From Girardia tigrina (taxonomy: Eukaryota): DNA of 59,546 nucleotides. Location of the stretch: NCBI GenBank assembly GCA_001938485.1, contig MQRK01248723.1, positions 1 through 59,546 of the forward strand, written 5' to 3'. The position numbers were made by a program, and so were the translations under genes. Positions 3,305-59,546 of the stretch are shown piece after piece (position 1 is the stretch's first letter; the number at the start of each line of letters is the position of its first letter). A model generated the notes under the pieces. The model had not been told where the DNA came from and made no database searches. It was given only the letters and a program-made list of their open reading frames with translations.

Positions 3305-4036
3305 TTATAAATTACTGATTATTGGACCCTCTAATCCGACATACGTTTTCAACAACTCATCTTCATTTTCAATCACTTCTCTTAATGATGTATTCAATAT
3401 TTGATACTTCTCAAATAATTTTAGCCACTTCTTGAAAATAGGTTTTAGAACTTTTCGAGACTTTTTTTCTTTGATCTCAACATAAAAGCAAGTATTGACA
3501 GTAAACTGCCTGACAATAGTGATGATTTCGTTAACGATGTCAAGAATGGAATTCACTTCACTTATTACTTCGTCATGAGCTTTTGTTAGATAATCTAAAA
3601 ATTTTGGACTTCGGATTAGTTGAGAATGCTGATCTGAATTTCTAGCCAAAATTAAACTGTATTTATACACATAGAGCTTATTATTTTGAATCTTAATCAT
3701 TTTATCAATTTTATTTTGTTTCCATTTGAGTATTTCTTCATATTGTTTTAGATATCTCTGATGTTCATTGGTAAAATCTTTATCGAGACATTTAATTACA
3801 TCTTTCACTTTCATTTGGTCCTTATTAAGTACATGGAGTAAATCACCACAACTGCCATAAATATAGATAAAGGTTTCCTTTCCGTCATCGGGTGGGCAAC
3901 ATCCATCGTCCAGATCGTTTATTCTATAACATTCCCAACAACACTGATGACCACAAGGTTTCAGCTTCAATAATGTTCCAAATATAATATTTCCACATGA
4001 GTGACATAATTCCTTTGGTGTAATTAAAGACGACAT
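3305..4036 (-). CDS. Intronless RING-like + helical/coiled-coil protein, paralog 1 (243 aa)
   Basis: Intact ORF; C-x2-C-x13-C-x-H-x2-C-x2-C...CPPD; full-length similarity to 18250-18987 and 20552-21259. Confidence 0.75.
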   Translation of the reverse strand: MSSLITPKELCHSCGNIIFGTLLKLKPCGHQCCWECYRINDLDDGCCPPDDGKETFIYIYGSCGDLLHVLNKDQMKVKDVIKCLDKDFTNEHQRYLKQYEEILKWKQNKIDKMIKIQNNKLYVYKYSLILARNSDQHSQLIRSPKFLDYLTKAHDEVISEVNSILDIVNEIITIVRQFTVNTCFYVEIKEKKSRKVLKPIFKKWLKLFEKYQILNTSLREVIENEDELLKTYVGLEGPIISNL

Positions 4037-13900: not shown

Positions 13901-16900
13901 TTAGATACAAAACTAAAATTGATTAAGATTTAAATATATTACTATCTCAAATGAAGCCAAAATTTAGGTGCTTGGAGGTAAAAAAGAGGGCGAACAACTA
14001 AAACGGCAACTGCTTTATTATATCAAAGAAAAAGTTTTAATGAAACAAATGACGATGATTTTCATACTCCAGATCCTTCGGTTAATAATCCTGACAATTT
14101 AAGTAATTAATAAAACGCTTAGTAGCCAATTTGTCTTTTTAAATCTATTTTTCTTATATAATATTAAAATTGTATCATATTATTATTTTTGTCGAATTTT
14201 TTATATAACTTGTCTCTATAATAAAATAAATTTGTTACAGAATTTTATCTATTTTGTTGCTAAAAATTATTTATTTTGTTGTCAATTGATAATTTATGTG
14301 TCGCTAAAAAAACCATAATTAGTTGCAAATTTTATTTTTTTAGTAGTTGAAATAAGTTTTAAGCCTTTTTGTTTACCTAATTACTTTAATTTTAAAATTA
14401 ACAAGAATAAAAAAAAATTCTAAAAAGTCAAAATTGGAAATTGAAAAATAAAAAAAAATTAAATCATTTTTGTCATTAATTAATGAAAAATGTTAGACAA
14501 AAAAACTAAGAATTAAAATATTATATATATATNNNNNNNNNNNNNNNNNNNNNNNNNNNNNNNNNNNNNNNNNNNNNNNNNNATATATATATATATATAT
14601 ATATATATAGAAAATTAATGGGGAAATCAAAGCAATAATACTCATTTGCATGAAAAATTATGATAAAGCTTTGAAAAATAATAGCTAAAAAAGATTTATA
14701 CAAAAGTTATTTTTCTTAGTGAGGTAAATATAGAATGATATCCGTTTTTATTGCTAATATTTTTTTTCATGAAAACGAAAGTTGAAATGTTGAAATAATT
14801 GTTGTTTTCTTGTTAATTTGGAAAAAAGATTTTTTTCTTGGTGTAGAGAAATACGGAAGAATTTACCTATATTATAATTTATTATTTTTGACAATAATTT
14901 CCATCGATTCAGATGCAATCTCAGCGGCCCTCAACGTCATCGGCAATTGATCCTTTAAATTCTCAAGTAAAGTTTATTTAACAATTCTTATCTATTTTAA
15001 AAATTTCAATTGGTTATTTTTCTGTAAGTAGTCCGACAATCAAAAATCTTTTTACAGCTTATTTAAGGAATAGAAGTAAATTCTAATTCCAAATATTTAT
15101 AGATGATAACCGTCTTTTCAACGCTACTTAAGGATTTTATTAAAATATTCATCGATTTTGTACTTTTTGAAGATAGGGGTTCCGAAAAATTTCGCATTTA
15201 TTGATTTTTGAAAATTGATATTGAAAATATTTGAAATGTAAATAAATTGATTGAATTCAAATAAATTTTCATGTTGTGCTCTTCTCATTTTTAGTAACAA
15301 CACGGTCCATGGAGGAACAAATCACTTTTGAAGAAAAGAAGTTTTTCATCGACACTAACAAAGAATGGTTTTTGGGCAACTGACATTCACCGTCTTATCG
15401 AAAACGCGTTAGGAGACATAATTACTGTCAGAAAGGTGCAGTAAATAGTGAAAGAATTTCATGATGGTAAATTTGAAGTATTTGATAAACGAGAAGAATC
15501 TGGAAGACCGCGAATTTCTGAAACACAAGAACATGTCTTATTGAGATTGACAAGTTCTTGAGCCTCACCAGTCTCTCTATGATCACCAAATCTACTATTC
15601 AATGTATTCTCACTCAAGAACTTTAAAAGATCGGTGCCCAAGTCAAATGGGTTACATATGGCTTGAGCGAATCTCAAAAACAAACTCGTGTGTCAGGATG
15701 CGAAGAAATTCGATGTGTTACGATGTCTCGCAACATTAGAAAAATTTTTTTTGTTACAGATGAGTAGTGACTATATGCTCGACATTTACCATCTTTGTCA
15801 TCCTCCAGAACGTGGGTCTATTTTGGGGGCCACAGACCACCGGTTGCCAGAAGAATGATACGTGACAAAAAGTTTCTGTGGCTAATGATCGCAAATTTTT
15901 ATAGTGACACCTACTTTGAGATTTTGAATCATGGAGAAACCGTTAATACAGAAAGGTATTTGGAATTCCTATCACGAATGTTTACAAATTTTCATATTAT
16001 GCGCCCAATCCTCATGTATTATAATGCTTGTCCGCTGTCGTCAGGATAGTACAAAATTTGCTAAAAGAAAAGAATATCAGCCTACACTGACAGCCCATTA
16101 TTCTCCTGATCTGAATTTAATGGATCGTTACATCTTTAGAAACTTTGAGATATTCCGAGGTTTGGATACTTTGTCAACAAAAGATTTAATAAGAGAAAAA
16201 ATCCGTGATTTTATAGAAACGTTTACTCCTGAGGAATTTAGCAAGCAGTTTACTAACTTTGTATCCAATGTTGGCAGAGTAATTGAAAGTGGTGGTACCT
16301 ATTTATAAATAATTATTCCACTTCATTCCACATTTTCTTGTTTTGCTAAATGTTATGTGATTGAATTTGTTAAAAATAAAACTTGACATACATATGATAT
16401 TGATTTTTAACCTTTTGGAATACAAATATATAAAAAATATTTTTGGAACCCCTTATAATTAGGAACGGGTTGAGCATTTTAATAGTTAACAAATAATAGA
16501 TGAACGGCGCAGGTTTTTCCTTCATGTCTCTCGCACCCAGGATGTATCATATATGATGCATAGTGACAAAAAGACTGTAAATGTTCCGAAATATAGAAAG
16601 GAGTGAAACGAGTTTATACATAAAAACGCTTTACTTCTTATGGTATTCTGTGAATCAGTTTCGAGATTAGTCCAATTTCTATTGAGTAAGATCAAAATTT
16701 TAAACGAAAAATCACTTGGTAAAAAATCTACAAAAAACTCTTAACACACATTTATTCCGACGACTCTCTCAACCATGTCTCAACACAAATGCCGTTTGGT
16801 GATTACATAATGATGCATACCATCTATGAAAATATTCGCAAAGCTTTATAGAAATTATATACGGTGAGCATATGAATCAAATTATTCTAACTTTCATACT

Positions 16901-19900
16901 ACAGCATTAAGAACGCGCGTATCACGTAGAATACAAGGTGACTTGCAAGGATTAATATTGATAGCTCATTTTCCTAATAAAACTTTTTGTATTTTATTAT
17001 TTTGGTCAATACTCGATTCATTTCTATTCGATTGAGCGCCTTAAGTTATTCTGGTATATGAGATGACTATTGGTTTCTCAAATGTACAGGGATTCATTCT
17101 TATGACATTTAAATTGATAAACTAGATTAGTTTGAACACGCAAAGGAGTTTGCGATTTTGATTTACAAATATCTTTTAGCAAAACAGTTTTAATAAATTT
17201 GGAATTTTGTAATAACTTTAATGGTTAACGAGTTATAGCAGCATTGATTTGCATTTATTTTTAACAAAAATATTCCATTTTAATTACACAAGAAACATTT
17301 ATTTTCGGCAAACTTATTGAATAAAATCATTTTTTATTTTATCTATTTGTAGAAAAATGAAATCGGAAGTGGCAAAAATCTGAATTTTTCTCTTAATGGA
17401 ACGAATAATGCATCGGATGTTGACATATTAATTAAAGAAGTATCTATTTTTTACAAGCACATATTTTGCTGATACCAAATATATAGAAAGAGACATTGCA
17501 AGAACAGTTGTATATGGCTAAAGGTCAACTGAAAATTGTTGAAGAGAATTTCAAAACCAATTTAAATCAAAGAAATGAAGAAATAAAATCATTGAAGGCC
17601 GATCTTTTTGCATCAAAAAGTGAATATGAAAAGACAATAAAAGTTCTTAAATCCAAATTGGAATTCAAAGAAGCATCTTTACATGGTGCCCAACAAGAAT
17701 TCATGAATTTGAAGTATGCTAATGAATCTTTGAATGAATCAATTCAAGGAGGTTATAAAACCATGATTTTTATTTTAAAATTATTTTTCATATAATATTG
17801 GCAAAATAACATGTATATATATGTATATATGTATATAATAATTGCAATTTTTAAAAATTTAAGGATTTTAAAATTTGAAGACTTCATTTTGTCCATTTCT
17901 TACCGTAATTGCCTTTGTTCTTTTTCAATCTTTGCTCTCCCAGTAAATATTTGCATTTTAGAATGAGTAGATGTGATTAACCTTTTCGCCCTTACCAACG
18001 ACAAACAGAGTGAAGACATTTCCAATTAATTATAAATAAAAAGATATAAAAATCAAAGAAGAGCGATATCAACTTGTAAAAGATACTATAGAAAATTCTT
18101 GTCAAGATAATTCTAATTGTAATAATAAACAGTGTTTTCAAAACCATTTTAATGATCTTATTAATTACATAAATGAAGACATCATCATATAAACAGATTA
18201 CAAAATCGCCAAATAACTTATTAAATTTATTTAAATCCTTTTTCTAAATTTATGTAGTACTGTTTATAGGGTTTTTGTGAAAATTGTTTAATCTAACATA
18301 CTTTTTCCACAACTGATCTTCATTTTCTTTAATTTCTCTTGCTGTGTTATTCAATATTTGATACTTCTTAAGTAATTTTCGCCATTTCTTGGAGATGGGT
18401 TTAAGAGATTTTCTGAGCTTTTTTTCTTTAATCACAACATAACAGCAAGTATATAATGCAAAATGTTTAGCAGCATAAATCATTTCGCTACTGCGGTCAA
18501 GAATGGAAGTCACTTCACTCATTACTTCATCATGAGCCTTTTTTTGATCATCTATAAAATTTTGACTTCCAATTAATTGAGCATGCTTATATGATGTTGA
18601 TGACAAAACTAAGTTGTGATTGTATGTACCATTTTTATTTTTTTGATTCTTATTCATTTGATAAATTTTCATTTGTTTCAATTTGAGTTCTTCTTTATAT
18701 TGTTTTAGATATTCATATTGTTCATTGACATAATCTTTATCGAGAGCTTTAATTAAATCTTTTAATTCTATTTTGTTTCTATTAAATACATTGATTAAAG
18801 CACTACCCCTGTAAACATAAATGAGGTTCTTTCCAACTCCGGGAGGACAACATTCATCGTTTAGATCACTTAATCTAAAGCATTCCCAACAACACTGGTG
18901 ATTGCAAGGTGTCAGTCTCAGTAATGTTCCAATTATAATATGTTCACATAAGCGACATATTTCTTTTGATGTAGTTAAAGATGTCATTTAATTTTGAAAT
19001 AACTTAAAATGCTATTAATATGAAGAACATAAATAAACAAATATTATTTAAACTATTTATTTGATACGGAAATATATAATGAAGAAATTTTATATTGTGA
19101 AGAAATCAACATCTAAATTTCACGCAATGGTTTGATTTACAAGGTGTGGTCTTTATTTTCAATCTATAAATTAGCTTATAAAGGTTTGTAAATTCTGATC
19201 CCAATTATACTGAGCAAGGTGATAGTTGTTCCTTTACTCTCATTACAACGTTGTGACCTGCTGGAAAAAAATGATAGAAAAATCAAAATTTCCAAAAAAT
19301 CGATCATGAGGCGTTGTTTCAGAAACAAATTTCTGTTCTCAAACCTAAAATAAAAGATTCATCAAAAATTGAATTATCTGATTGAATATATTCATCAGCA
19401 TGTGTACCCAATACATCTTCATTTGTATAACTGTTCGTTTCATAATCTTCTAGATCTTCAGACTCACCAGTGGTTATATCTTTCATTCTTTTAAAATTCC
19501 TTTATTGTTACTGTATTAGCTATATATATTTAAAGACAATATGTTTTTCTGAACCCTTTGTTTGAAAGAAAATTTCTTAATTATGATACTGGAAACTTAT
19601 GCTGGTTTATATATTTTGAAATTGATCAATTTGTTTTTTAAAATTATTCAATTATTTTCATCTTATTTCTTAATAGTTTCTGAATTTTCAGAATCTCTCC
19701 GTTTTCGAAACGGTCAAAATACATCCAATAGTATAATAATTATTATCTAATTTGTGATTTTTATTCATGTCAGTATTTGGTGTAAAATTTATTTTTCATT
19801 TGACTTTTAATTATATATTAACAAAGGTTTTTTAAGGTTTTCAACTGGGTGTAACCTAAGAAAATGTAGGTGTACAGTATAATATATTTATTTTTACTAA

Positions 19901-22765
19901 AAAATTGTTACATCACACATGTACACTGGATTTAAAGGGTTAAGAACAAAAAATGTCTTATATTTATTTAACAAGTATACAATTATAAATGACCTGGTGT
20001 AGGAGCGTGTATGTGCGAGAGGGAGAGAGAGTGGGTGGAATAGCACTGTGTGTATGTTTTAATGAACCCATGCTTTACCTATAAATAGCCAAATTTTTGG
20101 GTGTACATCTATAAAAGTTGGGTGTACATTGTACACCACAAATGACCTTAAAAACCCTGATATTAACAGTTACTTGAGTTGTGCCATCATGTAGATGTAA
20201 ATGACTAAAACCTAATTAGAAAATATTTTATCTTTTTATTATTTATTTATTACTTATTTTGTCTGAAGAGGACAATTAATCCTTCGAAATTAATAACACT
20301 GTATTTTTACATTCGTAATTTGTCTTTTTATTGTAATTTTTATATAAAAAATAGTAAGAAAATTTTCTAAAACATATTTCAAAGAAGTAAGTTCACTTTC
20401 TTTATTATATATTTCCGTATTATATATTATTCTATTTAGTAAATAAATTTTAGGAAGTTTTTCTTTATATAAAATGTATTTATTACATAAGAATCACATA
20501 ATATTAAATTTTTGTTTATATTAAAATTATTTAAAATTATATACTTATCAAATGACATCTTTAATCCAACCAACACCTTCATGTCACAGATGTGGTAACA
20601 GTATTTTTGGAACATTCATTAAACTAATGCCCAGTGACCGTCAACTATGTTTTGAATGTTTTATGACCAATTATCTGGAAGGGAAACATTCTCAAATTGA
20701 CGAAAGTGACAGCTCTATCCTTATTTTTGGCGCCCGTGGTGATGTACTTTGTGTTCTTGATAAAGATAAAATGACATTGAAAGATATAGTTAAATCTCTT
20801 CATAAGGAATACATCAATGATCATCATAAATATTTCAAAATGTATAAAGGAGAACTCAAATTAAAACAAAAGAAATTGGATCAAATAATACAGACTCAAA
20901 ATAAAAATTTTGATATATATAAACGCAATTTAAATTTGGCAACAAATTCATTGATACATTTTCACTTAATTCGAGGTCAAGCTTTTATTGAACACGTAAC
21001 GAAGGTCCATGATGTGATAATAAGCGAAGTGAATTCTATTCTTGAAGGTGTTATTGAAATATTTTTTGTTATTAAACAATTTATATACAACAGTTACTTT
21101 TTTATTAATATTAAAGAAAGAAAGTTCCGAAACATCGTAGAAACTATTTTTAAGAAGTGGTTGAAATTAATTGAGAAATATAATATTTTAGAGGTATCAC
21201 TGAAAGAAATTAGTAAAAAAGAAGACCTTTTATTGAGAAAATATACCGTATTGCTGTAATTATGGAAAAACATGACCCCACTGATATGAAATAACAGTTC
21301 AAATAAATTTTTTTATTTAATAACTTTATCAATAAATAAAATTTAGGTTTTCTTTTAAAAAAGTACCTTTAGTTTTTTTAATCATCTTTCAAAAATATAA
21401 AATTTTTCTTCACAATTTTTAAAATTAAAGATTAAATATGTGAGGAATATTTTAAATTGTATGAATGTGGGAATGTACTGATGCTGTATGTTGATTTGAG
21501 TATGTTGAAATTAGAATGGTTAATCTCCCACCCAGATGGAAATTTGTATTGTTTTGTATATTTACAAGATTGACTATTCGAACATACTTAAAATAATAAT
21601 TTGATAAGTTTATATTTTTTGAATTAACAATTAAAATTAAGTTAATATTTTTTAAAAAACAAAAAGAAAAGTATTTAATTAGTTTTAAATTAAATTCATT
21701 TTTAAAAATTTCATTAAATTTTTTTATTATATTGAGTTTTTATAAAGAAATAGTTAAAATTATTATTTTTTAAAAACAAAAACACGCCATTTGTTAAATT
21801 TATTTTTTACGACGGTATTATTAATTTCGACGGTATAACCGTCATCGTCAGGTCTCAAGAAAGAAATGAATTTTAAATCTGCTTATATAGGCAAGCAGTG
21901 ATTGTGTCATCAATGGATTATTATGTCATCTAAACACGCTTAATAGGGTTTTCGAGAGACCCGTCGATGACGATGATGGTTATACCGTCGAAATTAATTG
22001 TCGTAAAAAATAAATTTAACAAATGGCGTGTTTTTGTTTTTAAACATAATTTGCCATTATTTTTTAATTTTTGAATCATTATTATTTTTTATTAATGTTT
22101 TTATAAATTAAATATTTTAAAAGGAATTATAAAAAATCGTTCGAATAATCATGATTAAAAATAAAAATTAAAAAACCAAGTAGAGCGATGTCAAACGGTG
22201 AAAGATCTTGCGAGAGTTGTAATGACCCCAAATGTGATAGTGATAAAGATGCTAATGAAAATTGTCTCAATATTCTTAACAAAATAATTTAAAAATAAGT
22301 AAAAATTAACTGAAATGTTAATTTGTAAATTATCATTTTTATTTATTATTATAATTTTTAAATTACGGTAAGGCAATATTGCTTAATAAAATTACAATCT
22401 TGCAAATCTGCTATCAATGTGAACAAGTAAAGTATCTTTCTGTGCCACATGAAGTTTTAAATCAAGTTTAAAAAATTAAAAAAAATTGACAATAACGTTT
22501 TTAATTATGCTAAATAATTGTTGTTTTAAGTTATATTTTAGTTTGTCAATGTAAGGGGTCTAGATTTAATACGATTTCACAATTCTATCTAATTGGTATT
22601 TTCCAGTGAATATATGAGATACCAGATTGATAAGATTTGTAACTTTATAGTTATTCATTTTAAAATCATACAAATTTTGGAGTATTCCAACCCAAATGAA
22701 TTTAAGAACTAGAATTTGGGCAATCAACTTATTTTATGACGGAAGACTTCACGTCATTTAAACAT

Positions 22766-24541: not shown

Positions 24542-27500
24542 NNNNNNNNNNNNNNNNNNNNNNNNNNNNNNNNNNNNNNNNNNNNNNNNNNATATATATA
24601 TATATATATATATACATATATATGTATTTAGGGTGTATCATGAATGAAAAAAATCTGTAATTTCCATTTTCGGTAGTCATAAAAAATTGACCCAACATGT
24701 TTTGAAAGTATTCAATAAAAAATTTTTTTAATATTGCCACCCGCCAATGAATCAAAGATTTTGACCCTATAATACCAAATATTCTCTATATATTTTGCAT
24801 GTTAAAGGGGATAAAAACAAAACAAGTAGAAACTGTGAATAATTAAAGTACAGATTGAGATATGTTAATCAAAGTTCCAATCCTGCTTAGAGGAATAGCT
24901 TTTCTAGAAAGAAGTCTAGCTCGGATATAGCCATCTCTTCGCATAGAACCGTGTACAGCACTGGCGGCTTCCTTTACCAGTTTGACATGACGTTCAACAG
25001 TTTGAGAGTGACACGGAATAGATGTTTTTACGGCTGCATCAATATCTTCATCACTAATATTGGCTAGCAATGGAGGCTCTCTTCGTTCACAATCATCCCA
25101 ATTCACCCGATCACAGTAGCTCTCAGCTTGAAAGTTTATTGAGGGAATGCGAAATCTTCTTACACCATGACAAGTCTTCATACCTTGTCTTTCTTCTTTG
25201 ATTCTTCTTAATGCAACTTATCTTCCTTTTTTTCGTCAACTAGCATGGTCAAAATGATATTTTCTGGGGAACAAAATAAGTATTTCTTTGTACGCATGCA
25301 TCCACAACATGACGATTACCATTAGGAAGAAAACGGGAGAATTTAATTAGGCTCCATACGTGCACCTTGATAGGCTCCTTGTTAGCACTGTAGATTCAGT
25401 TTTATACGACACCACATTGGAGCATAAACGAGAAGAATATAATCTGTTAAGGCAAGAAGCTCCTCTGATGGTGACGCAGTTAAGACATAAAGTCGCAGAA
25501 TTCTGTTTGCCTCAGTGAGCCATCGTGAATGTACCAATTTACCTGGCTCTCTCTTTTCAAGAGTGGAGGAAACAGAGCCACACTTTATTGCCTTGCATAT
25601 TTCGTAAAGGTACTCCTGATCTTTACTCAATTCTTTCCGAACATCAGGTTGGATTTGACATTGCAGACAATTTTCCCTTACTCGAAATTAACAATATTCG
25701 TATCATGACAATGAAGCAGTATCTTTTATATTTCCCCGGTGAAAGCGTTTTGACCAGCAGCATATCCATCAAATTGTAATAGAAGGTGTCTCAGAAGCAG
25801 CTCATTGAAATGGAAAAGACATATCACCCTCTGTAACGGACTCCTCAGATGCAATTCTAATAATCTTGTAACACCATTATTGATACCTGTGGTAACGTTT
25901 GTGCCATCTGCACAGATAGCCCTGAGATTTTCCATGCTGATATTATTTTCGTTGAAATAATCCCGTATGGCTACAACAATGTCCCTTTCTGAGCCACTTT
26001 TAGGTGCTACATGACCAAGAAATTTCGAATTTGGTTCTTCAACAAGCACGAAGTGTTCTTCCACAATTGTACCTCGGGAGTCTGTCGAGATTTCGCACAG
26101 CGTCATATCTTTTCTCTCGTCAAAAAATAATGATTGTGGGGAGTTTGCGGATAAAGTCAGTTTTGCTTCTTTAGACAAATTCGCTCGTATCTTTTCTCTC
26201 TGACGTCACAATTTAGCACGGTCAATAGTTAAAGAGCTATTCTCCCCATCGATAACACCATAATCAATTAACGTGGCCGTAGCAATGGCAGCACCAGTAG
26301 TATTGGAAACCACATACTTGCCACATTCCCTAGTAACTGTAGGTAGTTCTATAAAATTTCTCTCTGATGTTTATTCACCTTTAGGGATAAAGCTTTCTTC
26401 TCGAGAACGGTAGTCTTCTAATTCACTTTCATCACCAATGTCTTCTACTCTATCCTCTGCACAATAATTTTCGACTTTGGTTCTTTCATAGTATCATTTT
26501 AGCTTCACTTGTCTTTCAATTTTCATTTGTAATGTTGATGTTGCTTCTTTATCATATCCACCTATTCGCATTTGCCTCGTTGTTCTTTGATCGACCAAGA
26601 ATTTCTGTTCTAATGATGGAATTTTAAATTGTTTTGAGCTATTACATATGAGAAAGTCAACACACTTACATGCTGCAATATCAAACAACTTGTGACTATG
26701 TTTAACTTTTTTCTTCATGACCAATTCATTGTATTCTCCCTTTTTCTTCAGATTATTCTTGTAATCGTTCTGCAATTTTTCTAGGCTGTTTTGGATTCTT
26801 CTTTGTGAAAGAACTGGGATACCATATTTCTGCCATATTTCCACTAGCGCCGTTGTAACACACGAAAGAATTTTCTTGCATTTTGTATTACTTGTTTCTC
26901 TCTCCTTTAGATGAAAATAAAATCTCATCACATATCCATTTGTCGGCAATAGAGTAGGAGGCAAGTCGCTGAGAAATCCATAAATGGGTTTCTTGTGTTT
27001 TGTTCGAGTTGTTATCATAACTGTAAATATAAAACAATATCCATATCATACACTACAGTCAAATTTAAAAATGCGGTATATATAATTCAAAAATAGAGGA
27101 AAAAGCATTTCATGCTAGATTACATGGCAACATATTGGGTATTTTAAATTGTCAATTATAAAAATCTATAACTATAATTTATAACTAACATTTAACTGAA
27201 AATTTAAAATAGTTAAAAACACACGTGTATAGCATGTAAACATGCATGTGTTGTTCTCGGTCTAGGACTCTAGGCACCATTTAAGTGTCGATATTGATTA
27301 TAAGCATATATAAACACATTGAATGAATGCAAATTAGAGCACTTATATAGGTATTATAGCAGCAAACACGCACCTAAAAACAATTTTATCAGATGCGACG
27401 CCACCGAACGTATATGCCAGCAAAAATTGAATTGGTGGGGGTATAAACGCAGTTTAAACAAACTTTTTGTCATATATTGTTGATATCTGTAATGTGGGGA

Positions 27501-30500: not shown

Positions 30501-32248
30501 TTTAATAATTTTGATTAAAATTATACATACACATACATAAAAATTTCAGTCCAATTATGAAATTGAGTACACCAAGGCCCCGCTTTGCGTCTCTATTCGG
30601 TTCCGAAAGTTGAGACGCTAAATGAGTTTCGACGCATAACGAATGTGTGGTAATATTGATCAGAAAGACTATTACAATATATCTATCTAAATAAAAATCA
30701 AAATAAAACAATTGTTTATCAAGAAATAGTACGAAAATTGCGCTCTTAATCCATTAAACTAATTAATAATATAAAATCATTAAAAACTAAGTATGCATTA
30801 TAAATTTAATTATCAAAACTTCTTTCAAAATCAAAATTTACTTAAAAAAAATTTTTCCAAAGTGGTTTGTAATGCATTGTCTATTTGTTCCGCATAAATT
30901 TCTTTATAGCAATTTATGCTACCAAGAACTGATCTGTTTACCTTCGAACTTCTTTCGTGATTAGGGTCATCTTGATTAAATATCTGCAGATCTTGATCAA
31001 TTAGTTGAAAAGCTTGAGCTAAACGTTTCGTCGTTAACGTTTGTTCTACGGCAATATCTTCGATTTTTTCATCAGAATCACTACTGTGTGCTGTCTGAAA
31101 TTCAATTTCCATTAATTGAGAAGTTGTTATCTCTTCATTGTGTGAATCCAATAGTTCTTCTATATCTTCGACCTCCATTCCTTCAACTTGCAATGCGGAT
31201 GCTAAGTCAACCATCTCTTTAATTGCAGTTATCCTATCATTATTCGTGTCATTTTTCAATGGGCTATGTACATTTGGCATTGAGGAACTCTCGGGTAGCA
31301 GTCGCGGTATGAGCTGGAGCTCCGTCTTGTTGAAAGTGACAGGAATAAAGCAGGTGTCGTTCTTCTAATGCTGGTAAAAATTCCGTACTCAGCATTTCAA
31401 TGTAAGCATTGGCCGTTACTGAGCCGTTGATGTAGAAGGGTCGAATGATGTGCGTAGCATTCATTGCAACCCATGTCATTGCAGATATAGGATGCTGGGC
31501 AACTTGCTCATAAAAGTAGGGATTTTCTTTGCTCCAGAAGATCGAATTGATGTGTTTACCATCCCCATAAAAGACACATTCATCTATGAAAAACAAATTT
31601 TCACGCTTTCGAGGATTGTTGTATTTATGAAGGATGGTTTTACAACACTGGACTCGGTTTTCTCTGTCAGCCTCTGAGAAATTGCACTTGGTATGGTTTC
31701 CAGGCTCGCAAACACAAATCATCTTTCAATATTCGCCGCAGACTTGTTCGTGGAATAATCGTTTCTTCTGCTCTTTTCCTGGTAGACATTTGAGGATCAT
31801 CATTGACAGATTGTTCGACAACTTGCGCAGAATCTCCACGCTCGGAAGGACGACCTGCTCATGGATTGTCTAACACGGAACCCGTCCCGAACAACTTTTC
31901 CATCCACTGGGTAATGATTCTTCCATCGGGCGGTTCACAATCATAACATTCTCTCAGCTTTGCTTTAACTGCTCGCATAGCCTTGTTCGACTTGTCAGAT
32001 TCGTACAGCCACGCTGCTGCTTGCACTCGAAATGGAATTGAATAGGGGCTGATATCGCTCATGTCTGAAAATTAAATAGAAGGTAAATTTCGTCATTATT
32101 ATTATTAGAATATTAAAACAGTAATAATNNNNNNNNNNNNNNNNNNNNNNNNNNNNNNNNNNNNNNNNNNNNNNNNNNNNNNNNNNNNNNNNNNNNNNNN
32201 NNNNNNNNNNNNNNNNNNNNNNNNNNNNNNNNNNNNNNNNNNNNNNNN

Positions 32249-42030: not shown

Positions 42031-43454
42031 CAGGGTTTTTCAATCAGTTGTGACATTTGTTCAATATGTTTCGACAATTTTTCAAAGGGTTTTGACAATT
42101 TTTCAATTGGTTTTGACAATTTATCAGATGATTTTGACAATTTTCCTAATGGTTTTGACAATTTTTCAAATGGTTTTGACAATTTATCAGATGATTTTGA
42201 CAATTTTTCAATTGGTTTTGACAATTTATCAGATGATTTTGACAATTTTACAAATGGTTTTGACAATTTTTCAAATGGTTTTGACAATTTATCAGATGAT
42301 TTTGACAATTTTTCAATTGGTTTTGACAATTTATCAGATGATTTTGACAATTTTACAAATGGTTTTGACAATTTTTGCAAATGGTTTTGACAATTTTTCA
42401 ATTGGTTTTGACAATTTTTCCAAATGGTTTTGACAATTTTTCAATTGGTTTTGACAATTTTTCAAATGGTTTTGACAATTTATCAGATGATTTTGACAAT
42501 TTTTCAAATGGTTTTGACAATTTATCAGATGATTTTGACAATTTTCCTAATGGTTTTGACAATTTTTCAAATGGTTTTGACAATTTATCACATGGTTTTG
42601 ACAATTTATCAGATGATTTTGACAATTTTCCTAATGGTTTTGATAATTTTTCAAATGGTTTTGACAAGTTATCACATGGTTTTGACAATTTTTCAAATGG
42701 TTTTGACAATTTTTCAATTGGTTTTGACAATTTATCAGATGATTTTGACAATTTTACAAATGGTTTTGACAATTTTTCAATTGGTTTTGACAATTTATCA
42801 GATGATTTTGACAATTTTACAAATGGTTTTGACAATTTTTCAAATGGTTTTGACAATTTTTCAATTGGTTTTGACAATTTTTCCAAATAGTTTTGACAAT
42901 TTTTCAATTGGTTTTGACAATTTTTCAAATGGTTTTGACAATTTATCAGATGATTTTGACAATTTTTCAAATGGTTTTGACAATTTTTCAAATGATTTTG
43001 ACAATTTTCCAAATGATTTTGACAATTTTTCAAATGGTTTTGACAATTTATCAAATGATTTTGACAATTTTACAAATGGTTTTGACAATTTTTCAAATGG
43101 TTTTGACAATTTATCACATGGTTTTGACATTTGTCAATAGCTTTCGACAATTTTCCAAAAGGTTTTGACAATTTATAGAATAATTTTATATGAAAAATCA
43201 ATTCAAAAAACCCAAGCATGAATAATTTTTATTAGTTTTGTTTCTTGAGACCAAGATTCTTAGTCCTACCTTTAGAATATAATGTTGATTTGACTATATT
43301 ATTCAGTAAAAAAATAAAATTTATTTTCATACAAAAACATGTTCAATATAATTTGACTAACAAAGTTTTAAAAATCTTTTATATTTCATTAAAAAGCCAA
43401 CTTAAAATTTTTTTAAATATTTTATAAATTGTCAAAACTGAATGAAAAACCCTG
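42031..43454. mobile_element. Tc1/mariner-type MITE containing a 21-bp minisatellite
   Basis: TA|CAGGGTTTTTCAATCAGTTGTGACA ... TGTCAAAACTGAATGAAAAACCCTG|TA. Confidence 0.9.
42070..43173. repeat. 21-bp tandem array (~52 units; TTTTGACAATTTTTCAAATGG)
   Basis: Direct inspection; near-invariant TTTTGACAATTT plus a few recurring 9-nt variants. Confidence 0.97.
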
Positions 43455-49435: not shown

Positions 49436-50384
49436 TATATAGTAATAACAATTATTAAAACTTTATTCAATGTATTTGAAACCAGTTTCCAAAACAAAAT
49501 GGCAATTTCCACAGAATTTGGTTCAACTAAAACAAAAAATGCAGTCAATGTCGGATAGAAAAAGTGATGTAAGAAAGTTTCAGTGGAAAATAATTTTCAA
49601 ATAACTTCATGATGAAAAGATAGAAATTTCTATCGATCAGAAAATCTAAATTTCACAACAGTTGACGAAAGTTAATTTCCTCAATTAAAACAAAGAATTT
49701 ATTACGGTAATTAAAGAAAAGAAAGTTAATAATGACGAGAAATAATGCGGATATACACATCAGAAAACAAACAGAACATTAAACGGCAAAATTAGACTTT
49801 AATGCGAGAGAAACTGTTACCAAGAGACGAATTTGAAAAAGGCCAGATATAAACTAGGTTTTAACTTCCTTTAAAAATTCTATGGATAAAATATCAATTA
49901 GAATCTGCCTAAATTAAACAAATTTACACATAATACGTTATATATTTTGTGAACGCTAATTTAATATTTTTGAAAAATAATTTTGTTAAAGTTTTTTTAA
50001 GAAATCGATTATTGTATGTGCCGGAAATTCATTTTCCATCATCAGCAATTATATGTGTTACTTATAATGTTAATTATTTATCAAATTTAAAAGGGAAAAT
50101 TTATTTATATATCTTAATTTAGATATTAATGGATAATAATGGCAAAAGGTTTTAAAAATTTAAATTAAAGATTTTAAGATTTGAAATGGCTTTACCTTGT
50201 CCATTCTGAATCAGTGTCCTGCTCAGTGACTTCAAACTTTCTCCAAATTTAAATCTATAGAATTGATAGAAGAGCGAGTGCAGCGCGGTCGCGGCATCCT
50301 GTAGTCTTGGGACGATCTCGGAGTCCGGGGGAATAATTTAATTTTAGCTCTCGAGTGGTCAACTACCACGACACTCGATATTCG

Positions 50385-50703
50385 TCGGCGCCCTCGGTGT
50401 AAAGACCCTTCGCCTAATTGCTTAGTCCAAGAATGAAATTGTCTGGTCAAAATATATGTGCGAATGATTCCGTACGAATGGAATTCATCGACCCTGGATC
50501 TAAATCCGCTGATACCGCTCGCGGAACATACCTTCCCCCAGTGGTCTCATTGCCGTAAAAATGATCTGCTCTAATTGCCGATCGGAATCTCCGTGGTACG
50601 TGCCAATCGGATCGACTCCACGTTTGTCCGATATCACTTCACATATTTTTGATTCAGTTTGATTTCCACATTGACCAGTTTGAAAGAGAATAATTTCCAT
50701 CAT
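50385..50703 (-). pseudogene. TUBB: Beta-tubulin 5' fragment
   Basis: [14 protein letters not shown]...[38 protein letters not shown]; frameshifts and stops. Confidence 0.92.
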
Positions 50704-51779
50704 GTCTTACATATTTTGATTTGTTATTTCAGTTCAATTTCAATTTTTTTTGCAAATCACACTTCTTCACAACTTTCTTTTCATTCAAACAAAAACCAAT
50801 AAACCTTTTTTTAAAACTTTTACAACTATAATTAATAATTAATTTTTCCTTTTCACATAATAATAATTTCTTGTGACGATAAGACTGAATATAACACGAA
50901 TCACAGTAAAATTTATTATGAACACACTCTTCTGTCTAATCGTCCTGCTCAGTGACTTTTCAAACTTTCTCCAAATTTAAATCGATTTCAAATAAACAGG
51001 ATTCTGTAGAAAATTCCACTTTCTTTTTGAATTTCTTAATTTGTTTGTCAATTTAAACAATATGAAAATATTCAAAAAAATAAATTAACTCTATACAACA
51101 TAATTTTTCAAGAAAAACATTTTTTACTTTTTACTTCACATAAATAACTTTTTATTCTCTTTTTTTCTAATTAAATATACAATTACTGTTTAAATAAATC
51201 AAATACAAATATAACTCAGTTAAAATCAAATTAATGACCAGAAAAAAGTTATAAAAAAGTTTAACTGATTTGCATCTTCAGTTTCCACATTTCCGATCCA
51301 GACAATCACAGATTCTCTGACACCCACTGGCAGCTGATTAGGATGTCTCTCTCTCCAACAAGTATCATATATTCTTAAAGTTCAGCGAACATTTATTAAT
51401 GGGTTGAATCATTAGTATAGTAATAACATCATATATCACTTAGCCAGCAATCAAAGTTACATTAAAAAATTCGAGTACTAACTCCAGAAATCGGAAGAAA
51501 TCTGTGTAGAATTCCTATTTGATTTTAATATTAAATATATCAAAATTAATTATATCCAAATATAAAATTACCATAACACAAGTGTTTCACAGATCAAACA
51601 TGGACAATATGCTGAACGTTAGGAACTCAAGAACCAGTTGGAAAAATTTTGAATATCCAGATTATTTTAAATAATTATTTTTTTATATTCGGAAATTAAA
51701 GTTCATTTGAAATTTATTAATCTAAGTTATTATTAACATTAGTAATGATTCACAAAACTGCCGCTCATAGTGTGACTCG

Positions 51780-52683
51780 AAGGCCTTCTGTGTCGCAATT
51801 CCCTCTTGTATAGTACTCATTTTCTGTATTCTATTTCAATATCTAGATTACTTAAGTAGTTCATCCAAGTTTGGAATATGGATGTAAGTGGTTTCTTTGT
51901 ATGAACATAAATGTTATTGCTTTGTGGTCTGTTCTCATTTTGATTTTGTTTCCCGTAAAGATAGTGTTTGAAATGTTGACAAAAGTAAAAAATCGCTAAT
52001 AGTTCCTTTCTTGTTACGCAATAACCTATTTAGTGTGCTGAAATCATGTGTGAGATCCGTATGCTCTTTACCGGATTCACCTATCTGTAATAGTACAGCC
52101 TCTATGCTGTTAAAAGTAGCGTCTGTTTCTAGAATAAACTGTTTTTTGAAATCATGAAAACTCAATATTGGTGCCGTTATCAATGTTTTCTTCATATTCT
52201 GAAAAGCTATTTCACATGTATCTGTCAAATTTAGTTTTTCTTTATTCGAGCTACACATTCCATCCAATAGTTTAGCTTTATTCGCGTATCCATTTATAGA
52301 CCTTCTGTAGTTATTGCAAATTCCTAAAAAACTTCTTAAATTTTTGATACATTTGGGTGTTTGAAAATTCTTTATTGATGCTATTTTCTCTGGGTTTGTC
52401 TGAATTCCTTTTTCATTTATAATGCGTCCAAAGAATTTTACTTCTTGACATAGTATTTTGTATTTTGATGGTTTGATTCTTAATCCTGTTTCTCTTTTCC
52501 TTCAAATACTTCTCTAACAACATTATAGTGTTCATCCTTTGTGATTGTTGCTATTTATGTCGTCTAAATAGACTGATGCTCCATTCTTTATCGGTTTTAA
52601 TACTGTGGTCAATAGTTCTTGAAATGTTCCTGGTGCGGCTGCTATTCCAAAAGGCATCCGTTTAAAACAGTATTGACCTGATT
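51780..52683 (-). mobile_element. Gypsy pol (RT-RNase H) fragment
   Basis: GQYCFKRMPFGIAAAPGTFQ, VYLDDI, LRSFLGICN, FILETDA. Confidence 0.92.
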
Positions 52684-54603
52684 AGTAGGGGGAAATGAGG
52701 CTTCTCCCTCACTCCCGGGGTAGGGTTACCCATTGTCATGGCAACGGTCGCGGTTACCATAGAAACGGTTCCGATCAACTTAGCAACGGTTCGAACACCC
52801 TAGCAACGGTTCCGATCCCCGTAGTCTAGGCAACAACGGTAACCAAGGTCTTAGTTACCATAGCAACTGTAACCAAGGGACGCTTTTCATTAGCAACGGA
52901 TACATTGATTCAAGGCGGTTGTAACCATGGTAACAGTTACCGTATCCATAGCAACCGTAGAAAAAAGTGCTAATCGATTGCTGCACATTGTGCCACACAT
53001 TTTTAATGTCATAGCAAAGTGTGTTTTACGTTGCACATGTGAAAAAGTGTAAAAATCAATACAAAATTTTTTTTAAATGTGCTATTGTCAAAAATCGATA
53101 TCATGTTCTTGATTCACATTTTGATTCTCTAACTAAATATGAAATTAGAATTTTCATATATTGATTAATTTTTCTTATAGTTAACATAATGTGCAAATTT
53201 ACATAAAATGCACATCGATTTCCACCCTTCAACACAGAAGCGCTACAATCACGTTAGTCCTGCGCCAACTCTGTCACCATCGTTATATAATCGATTTTGC
53301 TTTTTCTTCGATTGAATATTTCGCATTGCTCGCGTCAAAGATTGGAATAAATATTCATTGAAAACATTGCATGATTATTTTATTAACATCTCCGTGATTC
53401 ATTGTATTTTGTATCTACTAATTGTGAAAATTTGAATTTCATCTTCACTTTTTTTGAATTTTAAGACACCGCTCTGAACGAAGCCATCATCACCTTATTC
53501 TCATCAATTTGTCATTCGCTCGGCAAACATGATGTATTTACAAAAGTTCAATTTTCCGTAATTTTTACAGATAATATTACAGATAATTTTTAGCAGATTA
53601 AATAGATGTTTTGTAAAATGTCTATGCATGTTTTAAGTATAATAGGAGTTTTTACATGTTGTTTTTACATATAATATTAAAGGTTATGTATCTTGGTTAC
53701 GGTAACCATGGTACTTGTGATTGATCACTAGGTACATTAGACTATTCATGAGGTGTTGTTTGATGGTAAACAACATACATATATCACAGGGGTTTCATAT
53801 ACATATACGAAAAAATCGATTTTTGAGCACTTTTATGAGAATTTCAGAAATGTTCGAAAAAACCACTAGACCGCGATTTATCAGCACCTTTTTGAAAATG
53901 TTGATATTGAATCTGAATACACGTATACTGGTTACTATTCAAGCGTATCAGCACTTATTTGATATTCTGCCTCCTTATGCTTCTAAATTCGATGTGCATT
54001 TTGTGTAAATTTGCACATTATGTTAAATATCGGGAAAAGTAATCAATATATTAAAATTCTAATTACACATTCAGATAGAAAATCAAAATGTGCATCAAAC
54101 ACATGATATAGATTTTTGACACTAGCACTTTAAAAAAATTTTATGTAATGATTTTTGCACTTTTGCACATGTGCAGCTTGAAAAGCACTGTGCTAGCACA
54201 TTAGAAATGTGCGGCACAATGTCCAATATCGATAAGCTTTTTAAAAACTTTTAATTAGTTTTTTAATTAGCTTTTTAACCGTTACCATGGTTACAACCAC
54301 CTTGAATTACTGTATCCGTTGCTAATGAAAAATGTCATTGGTTACCGTTGCTATGATAACGGTAACCGTTGCTAAGGAACTGGGAACCAATGAGAAACGT
54401 TTCTAGGGTATCAGGTACCGACCGCGACCGTTGCTAGGGTACTAAGGACCAATCAGAAGCGTTGCTTCCTAGGCCAAGTGAGCTGGAACCGTTGCTATGG
54501 TAACAGGAACCGTTGCTAAGGTAACCGCGACCGTTTCCATGGCAACGGGCTACCCCACCCCCCGGGGGAGGTTGTGAGGCCGAACATACATTTTCCACCT
54601 ACT
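52684..54603. mobile_element. Long-TIR (~540-610 bp arms) element with AGT...ACT termini, possibly Polinton/Maverick-derived
   Basis: 52684-53219 is an imperfect inverted repeat of 53989-54603; ends AGTAGG.../...CCTACT; no TSD and no transposase seen. Confidence 0.65.
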
Positions 54604-56169
54604 CTTTGAATCTCAAATTTCGTTCTGCAGTCTTTGATAAAGATTGAACTACTGTTACGAATTGATCATATATATGATTATATACAAAGTAAAAAAAAAT
54701 CTTTATATATTTATAAAATTTATTATAATTTTTTTGTTAAAAAGTTTTAAATTGTAATTAATGTTGGTATCTGGAAAATTCGATAAACGTGATTTGTTTA
54801 AATAATATGATTGTAAATTAGTAAAAGTTTGAATGTCGATTAAAAATAAACAGTTGTGTTTGAATTTCGATTTTTCAATCTTTGAATATAATTAGTAATT
54901 AAAATAAGCATTTTCTGATGGCATTATTTTCTCCGACAAATCAAAAGCGATTGACAAATATTTCTGATGTGAAACTAATCGTAAAAACCGATAGATTTGA
55001 AATAGCGTATTTTCCGAATAAAGTAATCGCTTGGCGTCAAAAATTTTAATTTCAAATTCAAACTCTGCAAAATGAGCTGATTTACACAAATGTGTCGAAA
55101 GCGGAAATTGCGAGCAAAGACAATTCGAAAGAAGCTTTTCAAACGACGAATATTTTGAAGATTTGTAAAATTATATTAGAAAAATGAGAGCTCCAATTGA
55201 CGGAGAAAAAGAGTCAATTTGTGATGGATAATTTAATTAAAGATGACGCAAAAATTCTTACTAATAAAACGTTGAATCCGAGTACAAAACTATGCTTTCC
55301 ACTGGGTGTGATAAAAAATGATTCACGATTGCCACATCAATTTGAATCCGAAAAAAATCTGCAAAACAACAATCTCTCGACGTTATTCTGTTGATAAAGA
55401 AATTGAATGTTCCGATTGATGTCGCTCATTTATCTGTCAACATTATTGCGACACAAAAACAAATTAAATCAATCAAACGAGAATTATTGAGTTATTGTGA
55501 AAGTATTTTCTCAGATGTGCCACAAGAGCACGATTTAAAGATGGAGGCGATTTTCGAACCGGAAAATTATGATTTATTCAAAGAAAATTTCAAAACAAAA
55601 TGAATAATCGAATTACACAAAAAATGCAACAACAACTACTGTCAAATTTTGGCATCTCTGCTAACAATGTTCTGATACACATGTGCACTGATGGCTTTTA
55701 GCATCGGAATAACAAAAATGGAAAACTAACTAATATTTATTTTTCTAGATTCGAGTTTTTACAATAAGCGCCATTTTTTTGAGTATTAAAATTACAATTT
55801 ATATTTGGATAAACACTATTTTATAAGATGTTCATTCTTTATTTCAATTTTTTTCTTAAGTTAAATTTTTTATATGAAGATAATATGTTAAAAACAATTT
55901 TAAACTAAAAAAATTAAATAAAAATATACTGAAAATTTATTAGTGTCAGACAAAATGCTAAAAATAGGACGTCTAGCTGTCCTACGATAAAGAATTTAAA
56001 TAAATATTTAGTTTTCTTCATTTGATGTCAATAATTATCTTTTAAAATTTGTTGACTTTAAAGGCAATGTTGGATTTGACTTTCTTCAATTAAAATTACA
56101 ATTTTTAAACATGATGCGATTAATAAATGCCATTATTTGCACGCATATATATATATATATATATAATAA

Positions 56170-56616
56170 AAAGAAAGGCCATTTTTTAATATTAAATTTA
56201 TTCCCAATACAAACGCGTTTCACCATTTCAGCATCTTCAGTGCAATGAAATAAAGTGATTAATTGCTATTTATATAGTTGAAAAACTATTACATCATACG
56301 TCTCAAAACATGCTTTTTTTTCTTTTCTTTAAAAAAAGAAAAGTATTTTTAATGATATTTTAAGAAACTTTAATATGATTAGATGAATCACCTTACACGT
56401 TTAAGCATGGTTTAGGATGCTTTATTAACAATGCTTCGGCAATAATCCTTTCATAATTTGTGTCAAAATTATTTAAAATCTTTATTGTAATCCATAAACC
56501 TTTACATCTTTTAATATGGCTCAATATCGAACTATTTCTACTCGATTGAGTATGTTCAGCAATTCTAGTGCGGAGATGACGACTTGTCTCTCCAATGTAC
56601 AAGGCTTCGCACTTGT
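56170..56616 (-). mobile_element. Penelope GIY-YIG 3' end + pLTR
   Basis: YIGETSRHLRTRIAEH...ERIIAEALLIKHPKPCLNV; upstream part lies in a gap. Confidence 0.9.
56208..56244 (-). ncRNA. Minimal hammerhead ribozyme in Penelope pLTR
   Basis: UGCA-CUGAAGA-U-GCUGAAAUGGU-GAAA-CGCG-UU-UGUA, ~150 nt downstream of the GIY-YIG ORF; stem II weak. Confidence 0.7.
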
Positions 56617-58649
56617 NNNNNNNNNNNNNNNNNNNNNNNNNNNNNNNNNNNNNNNNNNNNNNNNNNNNNNNNNNNNNNNNNNNNNNNNNNNNNNNNNNNN
56701 NNNNNNNNNNNNNNNNNNNNNNNNNNNNNNNNNNNNNNNNNNNNNNNNNNNNNNNNNNNNNNNNNNNNNNNNNNNNNNNNNNNNNNNNNNNNNNNNNNNN
56801 NNNNNNNNNNNNNNNNNNNNNNNNNNNNNNNNNNNNNNNNNNNNNNNNNNNNNNNNNNNNNNNNNNNNNNNNNNNNNNNNNNNNNNNNNNNNNNNNNNNN
56901 NNNNNNNNNNNNNNNNNNNNNNNNNNNNNNNNNNNNNNNNNNNNNNNNNNNNNNNNNNNNNNNNNNNNNNNNNNNNNNNNNNNNNNNNNNNNNNNNNNNN
57001 NNNNNNNNNNNNNNNNNNNNNNNNNNNNNNNNNNNNNNNNNNNNNNNNNNNNNNNNNNNNNNNNNNNNNNNNNNNNNNNNNNNNNNNNNNNNNNNNNNNN
57101 NNNNNNNNNNNNNNNNNNNNNNNNNNNNNNNNNNNNNNNNNNNNNNNNNNNNNNNNNNNNNNNNNNNNNNNNNNNNNNNNNNNNNNNNNNNNNNNNNNNN
57201 NNNNNNNNNNNNNNNNNNNNNNNNNNNNNNNNNNNNNNNNNNNNNNNNNNNNNNNNNNNNNNNNNNNNNNNNNNNNNNNNNNNNNNNNNNNNNNNNNNNN
57301 NNNNNNNNNNNNNNNNNNNNNNNNNNNNNNNNNNNNNNNNNNNNNNNNNNNNNNNNNNNNNNNNNNNNNNNNNNNNNNNNNNNNNNNNNNNNNNNNNNNN
57401 NNNNNNNNNNNNNNNNNNNNNNNNNNNNNNNNNNNNNNNNNNNNNNNNNNNNNNNNNNNNNNNNNNNNNNNNNNNNNNNNNNNNNNNNNNNNNNNNNNNN
57501 NNNNNNNNNNNNNNNNNNNNNNNNNNNNNNNNNNNNNNNNNNNNNNNNNNNNNNNNNNNNNNNNNNNNNNNNNTGATATTTTTTCACATTTATTTTTCAA
57601 CAAATAATACTATTATTACGTCAACAATTATTACGTCAGCGTTAGTGAAGCAGGCAGTGAGTGACTTGGGCTTTTATAATATAGATATTTATTAGTTTTA
57701 ATATTTTGAAGTGTTCGTTAATTTTTTCCACTGACAACTTTTAATAATTTAAAAATGATGACAAATTTAAAACATAATTTAAACGTTTTTAATATTTTAA
57801 ATGAAATTTTGATTACGTTTTCGTAAAATAATTAAAATTAATAATATTTTAAGATACATTATTTTTCTGAAACAATTAATGAGAACTATAATTAATTTTC
57901 AATATGGTAGAATAAAATGTTTTCCTAAATTTTCAAATGAATAATATTTTAGACTAAATTTTATTAATCTAAAATAAAAATGGTTTTAATATTTTGAAAA
58001 AAATGATTTTTTTAAATTTGTAAAATGTGTATTATTTTTAAAATATATTTTATTTGAATAGAATATTATTTTTAAGTTTAAATTTTTAAAAACAGTTAAT
58101 CAGAATTTGAAAATTTATATAAATGTCAGCGAATTGATTACTAAAAAGTTGAAAATTTATTTGAATTTGTTTGTAATAAAAATAATTAATTTATGTGAAT
58201 AAAATTTTTTGATAAATTCTAATTCGAATATCGAACACAATAACATGGTGACTTACGTCACGAATATCGTATATTGTGACCATAGAAAAACTATTTGAAA
58301 TCATATTAGAAAATGGTCGAATTTCTAAATCATGGGGTGAACTATATTATAAAAGCGAATATCTAAATAACAACAGTGTATTTGAATTACAGTTTATAAT
58401 TCTGATTATTTTACATAATTATTCCACATGTGCCCTGTTTGACAACTGTATCTTTTAGGCTTTTGTCGGTCTCGAACTGAATTGCATCTCACTCTTGTTT
58501 CATTGATCTTCAGTCACTCTTCCTCTGTGTGAAGATATTATGATGAATTTGCGACAATATTATAAAAATAATTTATTGCATATTTGTTTTAATATTCAGA
58601 TATTATTTGTATTTGAAGTTAATAAAGCATATTCTTGTTTCTGTTTTAT

Positions 58650-59190
58650 TTACCTTTATATAACACTCTGGTCCTCTTCGTGTATATCTTGATGGTCATT
58701 TTTGATACTTTTTCACACTATTGTTGTACCCTCTTCTGATTTTCTCGTGTCCTTCTGTAGCGTTCTCCATCTTTTGATATCCACCGCATTTCTTTCAATA
58801 TTTTTTTTCATCACTAATCCTTTTTAATCTATACGCATGCTCCTTTAGTTTATCGATCACCTTATATGGCCCTTCGTATTTTGGCATATTGATTCCTTTG
58901 ATTCGAGGTAGTATCCTGACATAAGTAGATCACTGATTGCCAGACTGCCCCCTGAACCTATTGTAGCTGGCTTTTAACTTCTTGTTTTGTCTTGATCTGT
59001 TGGCTCACTGCTTGTAGCACTTCTTGAAGCTCTGTGATGTATTTACTATAGTTTCCCACCTTCGCTGGATTCCATTGCTTTTTTGAGTAGAACGATCTCA
59101 TTTTCCAACCAAAAATCACATGGAATGTTAAGAATCCAGTGCTTCTGCAAATTGTATTTCTAAAGTAGTATGAAAATGGGCATTCTGGCG
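58650..59190 (-). mobile_element. Gypsy integrase C-terminal fragment
   Basis: NTICRSTGFLTFHVIFG and PKYEGPYKVIDKL (GPY/F motif). Confidence 0.8.
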
Positions 59191-59546
59191 ACCACCCCCC
59201 CATAGCCGTAACCATAGCAACGATATGGGTTATCGTGGTTACCATGGCAACGGTCGCGAATACCATAGCAACGTTCGTGGTTACCATGGCAACGGTCGCG
59301 AATACCATAGCAACGGTCGTGGTTACCATGGCAACGGTCGCGGTTACCATAGCAACGGTCGCGATTACCTTAGTTACGGTCGCGGTTACCATAGCAACGG
59401 TCGCGAACACCTTAGTTACAGTCCCCATGTCCCACGGGGGGTTTACCGTTACCAGGGCAACGGTCGCGATCGCCTTAGTGACGGTTGCTAAGGACCGTTG
59501 CTAAGGGCCAGTAACCTGTTCTCGGTTGCTAGGTGACCGTTACCAT
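59191..59546. repeat. 21-bp tandem array (GGTTACCATRGCAACGGTCGC), related to the arms of the 52684-54603 element
   Basis: ~8 tandem units at 59238-59410, sharing CATGGCAACGGTCGCGGTTACCAT with 52737-52760. Confidence 0.9.

Follow-up and report, generated by a model that had tools for sequence, protein, structure and literature searches.

To our knowledge, almost nothing is known about the host factors that control Polintons (Mavericks), whose cis-elements have been described mainly in terms of an end motif and the length of the terminal inverted repeat (TIR). The commonest Maverick end motif is reported to be (AGT)2, with (AG)3 also in use, alongside TIRs of 46-1,447 bp, target-site duplications (TSDs) of 6 bp and, in vertebrates, usually low copy numbers (mean 22, median 8) (PMC8097293). 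In C. elegans, gene-less TIR pieces (Polinton_CE_TIR) are described as having been left behind and as being involved in rearrangements (bioRxiv 10.1101/2024.01.15.575659). Planarian Polintons are listed as piRNA targets that rise in differentiation (PMC8532177), and Mavericks are reported to have expanded in Dugesia (bioRxiv 10.64898/2025.12.11.693146); the two reports bear on the present DNA only if it comes from a planarian, which is a guess based on GC and repeat content. A second group of described systems concerns the RFX proteins, of which RFX1 and RFX3 are reported to bind the D sequence of the AAV terminal repeat and the enhancers of HBV and polyomavirus (PMC5760533).

Here we describe a locus at 52684-54603 of the window, by which we mean the whole stretch of 59,546 nucleotides that was analysed. 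What remains at this locus is the debris of decayed repeats. Our composite reading is that it consists of two facing, incomplete ends of a high-copy non-coding repeat, that this repeat is derived from Polintons, and that its X-box arrays recruit host RFX; taken together, we regard this as evenly balanced between right and wrong. In the literature outside Repbase and most subscription journals we found no account of Polinton termini that carry X-box arrays. An earlier reading of this DNA from its letters alone (the sequence-only reading) had likewise known of none, a statement that our searches bear out for Polintons but not for viruses, since RFX on a viral inverted terminal repeat has been published (PMC5760533).

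Arms, flanks and copy number

The window as a whole is AT-rich, gapped and populated by many decayed transposons, and resembles a draft animal genome. A terminus starting with AGTAGG lies at 52684, and the reverse complement of this motif terminates at 54603, which gives the AGT...ACT ends that the sequence-only reading had pointed out. The arms of more than 500 bp that it described are also present: 52684-53228 (545 bp) aligns in inverted orientation with 54603-53986 (618 bp) at an identity of 77% of ungapped columns (416 matches, 127 mismatches and 84 gap columns). Identity is 65% across the terminal 52 bp and 82% across the inner 247 bp, and the likeness between the arms breaks off abruptly at 53228. 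GC content is 49-50% in the outermost 300 bp of either arm, compared with 29% for the window beyond the element. We refer to the left end fragment (52684-53228, forward strand, terminal motif at 52684-52697) as A and to the right end fragment (53590-54603, reverse strand, terminal motif at 54590-54603) as B. The terminus of each faces outward, and the AGTAGG of both agrees with the Maverick (AGT)2 at five of six bases. No coding capacity was detected in 52684-54603, where there is no ORF of at least 100 aa and no integrase, ATPase, protease or capsid gene, and tblastn with three pPolB queries gave zero matches in the window. An Rfam scan of 50000-59546 returned one chance match only (E 0.4).

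The abundance of the arms was examined with Logan contigs from four of 21 runs, mapped on 52200-55100, bearing in mind that contig depth is not the same as a copy count. For the left arm the summed contig depth is 0.35-14 million, and for ~53590-54600 it is 0.5-25 million, compared with about 70 for single-copy DNA; the majority of the contigs are 90-95% alike. Two of the runs that cover the repeat, X3 and X7, are of presumed kind. On the right, the high-copy repeat extends beyond the aligned arm to about 53590, giving a unit of about 1.0 kb, and the left unit is truncated at 545 bp; the inner boundary of B may mark a break or may be where the unit naturally ends. Between the two fragments lies a near-single-copy spacer of ~360 bp (53229-53589, no strand assigned), with a depth of 70-1,700 over 53267-53557, which the depth of both arms exceeds by 3.5 to 5.5 orders of magnitude. 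The spacer is represented in X1 by a contig covering 53251-53643 with 0 differences (depth 69) and in X2 by one covering 53251-53529 (depth 112), the right junction is crossed unchanged by one X2 contig, and no intact ORF and no second match in the window were found for it. Division of the arm/spacer depth ratio by 31, for unitig overlap, gives a rough figure of about 1,400-6,400 copies. The arms belong to a major interspersed family whose copies number about a thousand or more.

No TSD was found at 52684/54603, for lengths of 2-12 and with the ends also shifted by up to 4 bp; the best 6-bp candidate agrees at two of six bases, with a P of 0.006-0.03 under mere decay at the rate of the arms. 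On the left flank, the terminus at 52684 truncates a broken Gypsy-type RT/RNase H remnant (51808-52681, reverse strand), whose similarity to its closest relative, the metagenome protein P0001, begins with residue 401 at 52681 and runs leftward only. Residues 1-400 in the numbering of P0001 are absent from the whole window, including the right flank. Because a TSD is absent, the Gypsy gene is not resumed on the right and near-single-copy DNA lies between the arms, we consider it likely that A and B are separate insertions and not one deleted element, which agrees with the two facing half-elements proposed in the sequence-only reading. The 35% difference across the terminal 52 bp, together with large indels in the arrays, fits different subfamilies. 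Alternatively, 52684-54603 could be one internally deleted, non-autonomous element with filler DNA, next to which a later deletion took one TSD and the remaining Gypsy gene. Such an element would explain why both termini face outward and bound the stretch exactly, and a drift of 7-8% per copy would give 15-18% divergence between the inner arms if it were old. However, the poor likeness of its outermost bases and the large array indels do not sit well with a single origin, the nearly single-copy spacer means that the A-spacer-B arrangement did not amplify, and the flanks require an additional deletion, so that we hold a single element to be decidedly unlikely.

Comparison of the window ends with Polintons gives a mixed picture. 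The end length of ~1 kb falls inside the TIR range of Mavericks, and the C. elegans Polinton TIR pieces, as described in the preprint cited above, resemble A and B in being gene-less, long non-coding ends. In contrast to Polintons, the window element is without pPolB, integrase and capsid genes and without a 6-bp TSD, its arms are just 77% alike and probably come from two insertions, and its family exists in thousands of copies, far above what is typical of Mavericks. The missing TSD carries no information about Polinton class if the two ends are two elements.

X-box arrays at the three ends

A scan of 52684-54603 for the strict RFX consensus GTNRCC-N0-3-RGYAAC gave five sites (52854, 52921, 54281, 54491 and 54512), whereas 1000 dinucleotide shuffles averaged 0.018 and never exceeded 2. 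Allowing up to two mismatches to the 14-bp palindrome gave nine sites (shuffle mean 0.026, maximum 1), and half-sites numbered 28 (shuffle mean 3.5, maximum 10). Since the sites lie in a tandem array, the shuffle test establishes that the array is non-random, not that each site was gained independently. The window's first 52.7 kb contain no strict or near-full X-box. The sequence-only reading had reported many matches to this consensus in the outer part of each arm, and the shuffled controls bear it out as regards excess, although the strict sites number only two on the left and three on the right. Of the examples that it quoted, 52921 and 54491 are strict and "~52855" corresponds to 52854, but 54533 misses the strict consensus.

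The subterminal array of A (52732-52955, forward strand) is built of 20-31-bp units with an RFX half-site in each, and has near-full X-boxes at 52732, 52753, 52854 and 52921; that of B (54281-54546, reverse strand) has near-full X-boxes at 54281, 54347, 54491, 54512 and 54533. Near-full X-boxes are thus present in only nine of the ~21 units of the two arrays, and most units retain the right half of the X-box, followed by GG. The inner part of B contains a degenerate lone X-box with three mismatches (53702-53715, no strand assigned), within a short palindrome. A long head-to-tail array of the satellite type was not seen at the ends, where the arrays reach eight units at most. The X-box at 52753, GTTACCATAGAAAC, is identical in every base to the validated dyf-5 X-box as listed in Table 1 of PMC3245922, and further X-boxes of the window are one base off the osm-6, xbx-1 and bbs-2 boxes given in the same source. 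As sequence matches only, by consensus fit and by identity with the dyf-5 box, the RFX sites named in the sequence-only reading are supported. The likeness to the DAF-19/RFX X-boxes of C. elegans ciliary genes is nevertheless one of the box and not of its setting: those X-boxes are mostly single and lie ~60-290 bp upstream of a gene, whereas those of the window are clustered in a gene-less repeat.

A third end, C, belonging to a related subfamily, lies at 59164-59546 (forward strand) and continues past the window edge; like the extension of the repeat to about 53590, it had escaped the sequence-only reading. Its terminus is an exact (AGT)2, and its array is cleaner, with a 21/42-bp period, eight strict X-boxes and three perfect palindromes. 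End C looks younger than A and B, and has the most perfect palindromes of the three. For tests of binding it would be preferable to the A/B stretch. The three ends are flanked by GATT, AAAG and CTAA, without TTAA and without a common fixed word. By eye, the flank of C resembles a Gypsy integrase remnant, with no Pfam match and no match to P0001. Helitrons, solo LTRs and Academ elements were considered by their end motifs and set aside, there being no CTRR, TG..CA or common TAG end across the three termini.

Similar termini in other animal DNA

A scan for three spaced X-boxes led to two short contigs in a bacterial MAG of GTDB (G001), in which seven pPolB matches and 30 integrase-domain (rve) matches indicate contamination by animal mobile DNA. 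Numerous contigs in this MAG come from animal Polintons and from other transposons, and G002, G003 and G012 are likewise contaminated bins that contain animal-like repeats. With one mismatch allowed, G001 has 11 X-boxes, compared with one match to a control pattern, and nine of these 11 lie within 170 bp of a AGTAGTAT-type terminus; the termini are distributed over six contigs, and one of them is degraded. These six ends in another animal combine a AGTAGTATG-type terminus, as in the window, with X-boxes, and in four of them (C62, C422, C433 and C143) the X-boxes are spaced by 21 bp. Of the 14 terminal bases of end C, 13 are shared by C62 and C422, whose flanks are different. The words beside the X-boxes in these four contigs are, we presume, E-box-, CRE- and YY1-like. 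In the G001 ends generally, the E-box- and CRE-like words precede the X-box array in a dense cluster of general-promoter motifs, and at two ends (L050 2041-2094 and L009 2250-2310) three to four tandem YY1-like words come after it.

One of the ends is linked to a Polinton gene. On C44, an X-box lies at +38 from the terminus and an ORF begins 1.1 kb inward, which is 45% identical over 420 aa to a Pfam-confirmed pPolB (E 1e-98). The leader of C44 is partly repeated upstream of pPolB and an A32-like ATPase on C258, a piece of it is also found on C192, which encodes an rve integrase, and a terminus of the C44 type is present on C203 together with ORFs of RING and PC4-like type. The case of C44 shows that at least one Polinton-type element has an AGT-type terminus with what its sequence marks as an X-box. 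When the outermost 330 bp of the window ends were aligned with C44, the scores of 28-30 were no better than those of shuffles (maxima of 28-32). Scores with C62, C422, C433 and C143 were 38-55, on contigs that show no genes, and may come entirely from the X-boxes. No contig was found that joins the window's own family to Polinton genes, and the full right unit had no real match in five animal-contaminated assemblies. On balance we favour descent of the repeat family from Polinton ends, a probable origin that the G001 ends support by analogy and not by proven homology. The Polinton likeness put forward in the sequence-only reading is in this way only partly sustained: the (AGT)2 of end C and the X-box-bearing ends of G001, one of them upstream of pPolB, speak for it, but the window's family has neither a Polinton gene nor a TSD and its copy number lies far above that of typical Mavericks.

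The distribution of X-boxes in other repeats bears on how specific this link is. Among 50 pPolB loci (five of them from G001), none has an X-box cluster and two have a single weak site; most of these loci are short, and the 12 longer ones that were checked showed no recognisable terminus, so that the result is a weak one. Across ten further assemblies, X-boxes far outnumbered the control in G003, an assembly of 12 Mb (151 vs 3), and in G012 (43 vs 12), numbered 5 vs 0 in G006, and were near the control in the remaining seven. pPolB had no match in 14 contigs from G003 and G012, two of which contain TTAA-flanked inverted repeats bearing X-boxes. The TTAA-flanked element at L176 10484-11951 (G003) is 1.5 kb long, with 579-bp TIRs and X-boxes in both arms, and those at L172 3119-3946 and 17482-18307 are MITE-like and also have X-boxes in their arms. 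We take the G003 MITEs to be Kolobok-like. They share with the window X-box palindromes in the long terminal repeats of abundant non-coding elements, but differ from it in termini and target sites, and in G003 there is mostly one X-box per arm instead of a 21-bp array. A candidate 15-kb TIR element in G003 (C10) proved to be two inverted copies of a TTAA-flanked MITE, with no pPolB. In three repeats of G012 (L183 5924-6787, L184 705-1198 and L185 1035-1769), X-boxes are regularly spaced, at 150-360 bp. The presence of X-boxes in TTAA-flanked MITEs means that they are not specific to Polintons. Candidate X-boxes are common in several unrelated invertebrate repeats, which makes the Polinton link less specific and a host protein a likelier reader than the transposase of one family.

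The window's own array, searched for by exact patterns, had no match in the viral, metagenome and prokaryote collections; two single matches to an 18-20-mer were due to chance and had no X-boxes. Patterns of two X-boxes gave five loci in the viral collection, 0 with an array, and eight in genomes (two G001 ends, two animal-like repeats and four bacterial loci), and a pattern of terminus plus half-site gave six loci. A tandem YY1-like pattern matched two viral loci, both unrelated.

Candidate factors and the proposed role of RFX

From the match to the consensus, we lean slightly towards the view that RFX dimers bind the X-box array, in which case they would sit on palindromes spaced two helical turns apart. 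A different way to account for the array is that the family is a long-TIR cut-and-paste DNA transposon, such as a foldback, Kolobok or MULE element, with the array bound by its own transposase and the likeness to RFX sites incidental or secondary. Head-to-tail subterminal arrays are typical transposase-binding arrays, and those of A and B fit this description; MITE-like families typically have thousands of gene-less copies, and both arms of the TTAA-flanked L176 element carry X-boxes. However, TTAA is missing from the flanks of all three window ends, which have no fixed flanking word in common, the window's type of terminus is found beside a pPolB gene on C44, and the occurrence of the 14-bp palindrome across unrelated families and hosts argues for a host factor and not for one transposase. 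We therefore regard a cut-and-paste origin as unlikely.

The host factor could also be one other than RFX, most plausibly MYB, for which the array would be maintained with the X-box as a by-product. What we take to be the MYB consensus, YAACKG, overlaps the right half of most array units of the window and occurs 7, 9 and 10 times in the ~300-380 bp of A, B and C, compared with 1.4/kb elsewhere, and conservation of the GG that follows the half-site equals that of the left half of the X-box. The related G001 ends, however, retain full palindromic X-boxes, mostly without GG behind them, and perfect palindromes are most numerous in C, the youngest-looking copy. Maintenance of the array for MYB is in our estimation highly improbable.

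If RFX is indeed the factor that reads the array, bound RFX would serve as a general enhancer for the genes of the parent element. It is possible, if somewhat doubtful, that bound RFX activates the transcription of genes in the parent element or organises a terminal replication origin, as has been proposed for AAV. AAV, HBV and polyomavirus would have in common with the window that a DNA virus-like element carries host RFX sites in its terminal repeat or enhancer, but theirs are single imperfect sites at which binding has been shown, whereas the window has four to eight near-perfect candidate sites in tandem, in an integrated repeat. Gene-less remnants such as A and B would have no job of their own except scattering RFX-type sites. 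The sequence-only reading had suggested that clustered RFX sites tie such an element to ciliated or sperm-forming cells. This tie is not supported: several human RFX genes (RFX1-3, 5 and 7) are reported to be broadly expressed (PMC5838959), and the words that accompany the X-boxes are of the general-promoter type.

A more general proposal, which we offer tentatively and as rather unlikely, is that invertebrate Polintons carry terminal X-box arrays as a conserved cis-element through which host RFX switches them on or replicates them, and that in the host of the window a non-autonomous derivative has spread thousands of clusters. The X-box terminus, seen in two animals and once upstream of a polymerase gene, would name a testable host factor for these elements and would parallel the use of RFX by AAV, HBV and polyomavirus. 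If the proposal is true, the thousands of spread X-box clusters could act as RFX sinks or as mobile enhancers, and recruitment of RFX may be a general transposon strategy, with other families of DNA transposons using the X-box too. In a host whose repeats supply X-box clusters by the thousand, analyses of RFX motif enrichment and predictions of RFX targets would be distorted as well.

Elsewhere in the window, three single-exon ORFs (3305-4036, 18250-18987 and 20525-21259), each ~243 aa long and Cys-rich at the N-terminus, are paralogues and form an orphan gene family, with 48-55% identity to the first; the one that was scanned had no Pfam match, and no homologue was found in two large protein searches. 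Broken DNA transposase fragments with a CxxH-like word were recognised by eye at 24843-27045, three pieces of which had no Pfam match. The regions 774-2225, 5982-8342, 13628-13933 and 31264-31725 include a stathmin-like ORF, assigned by eye and with no homologue found, a PP1-like phosphatase remnant with a Metallophos match, mariner-like and Penelope-like remnants, also seen by eye, and weak MULE and DDE_3 matches. A satellite array at 42036-43174 (21-bp unit, 54 copies, 85% matches) is unrelated to the X-box array, and short direct repeats at 50204-50261 and 50930-50989, ~728 bp apart, surround a possible decayed element.
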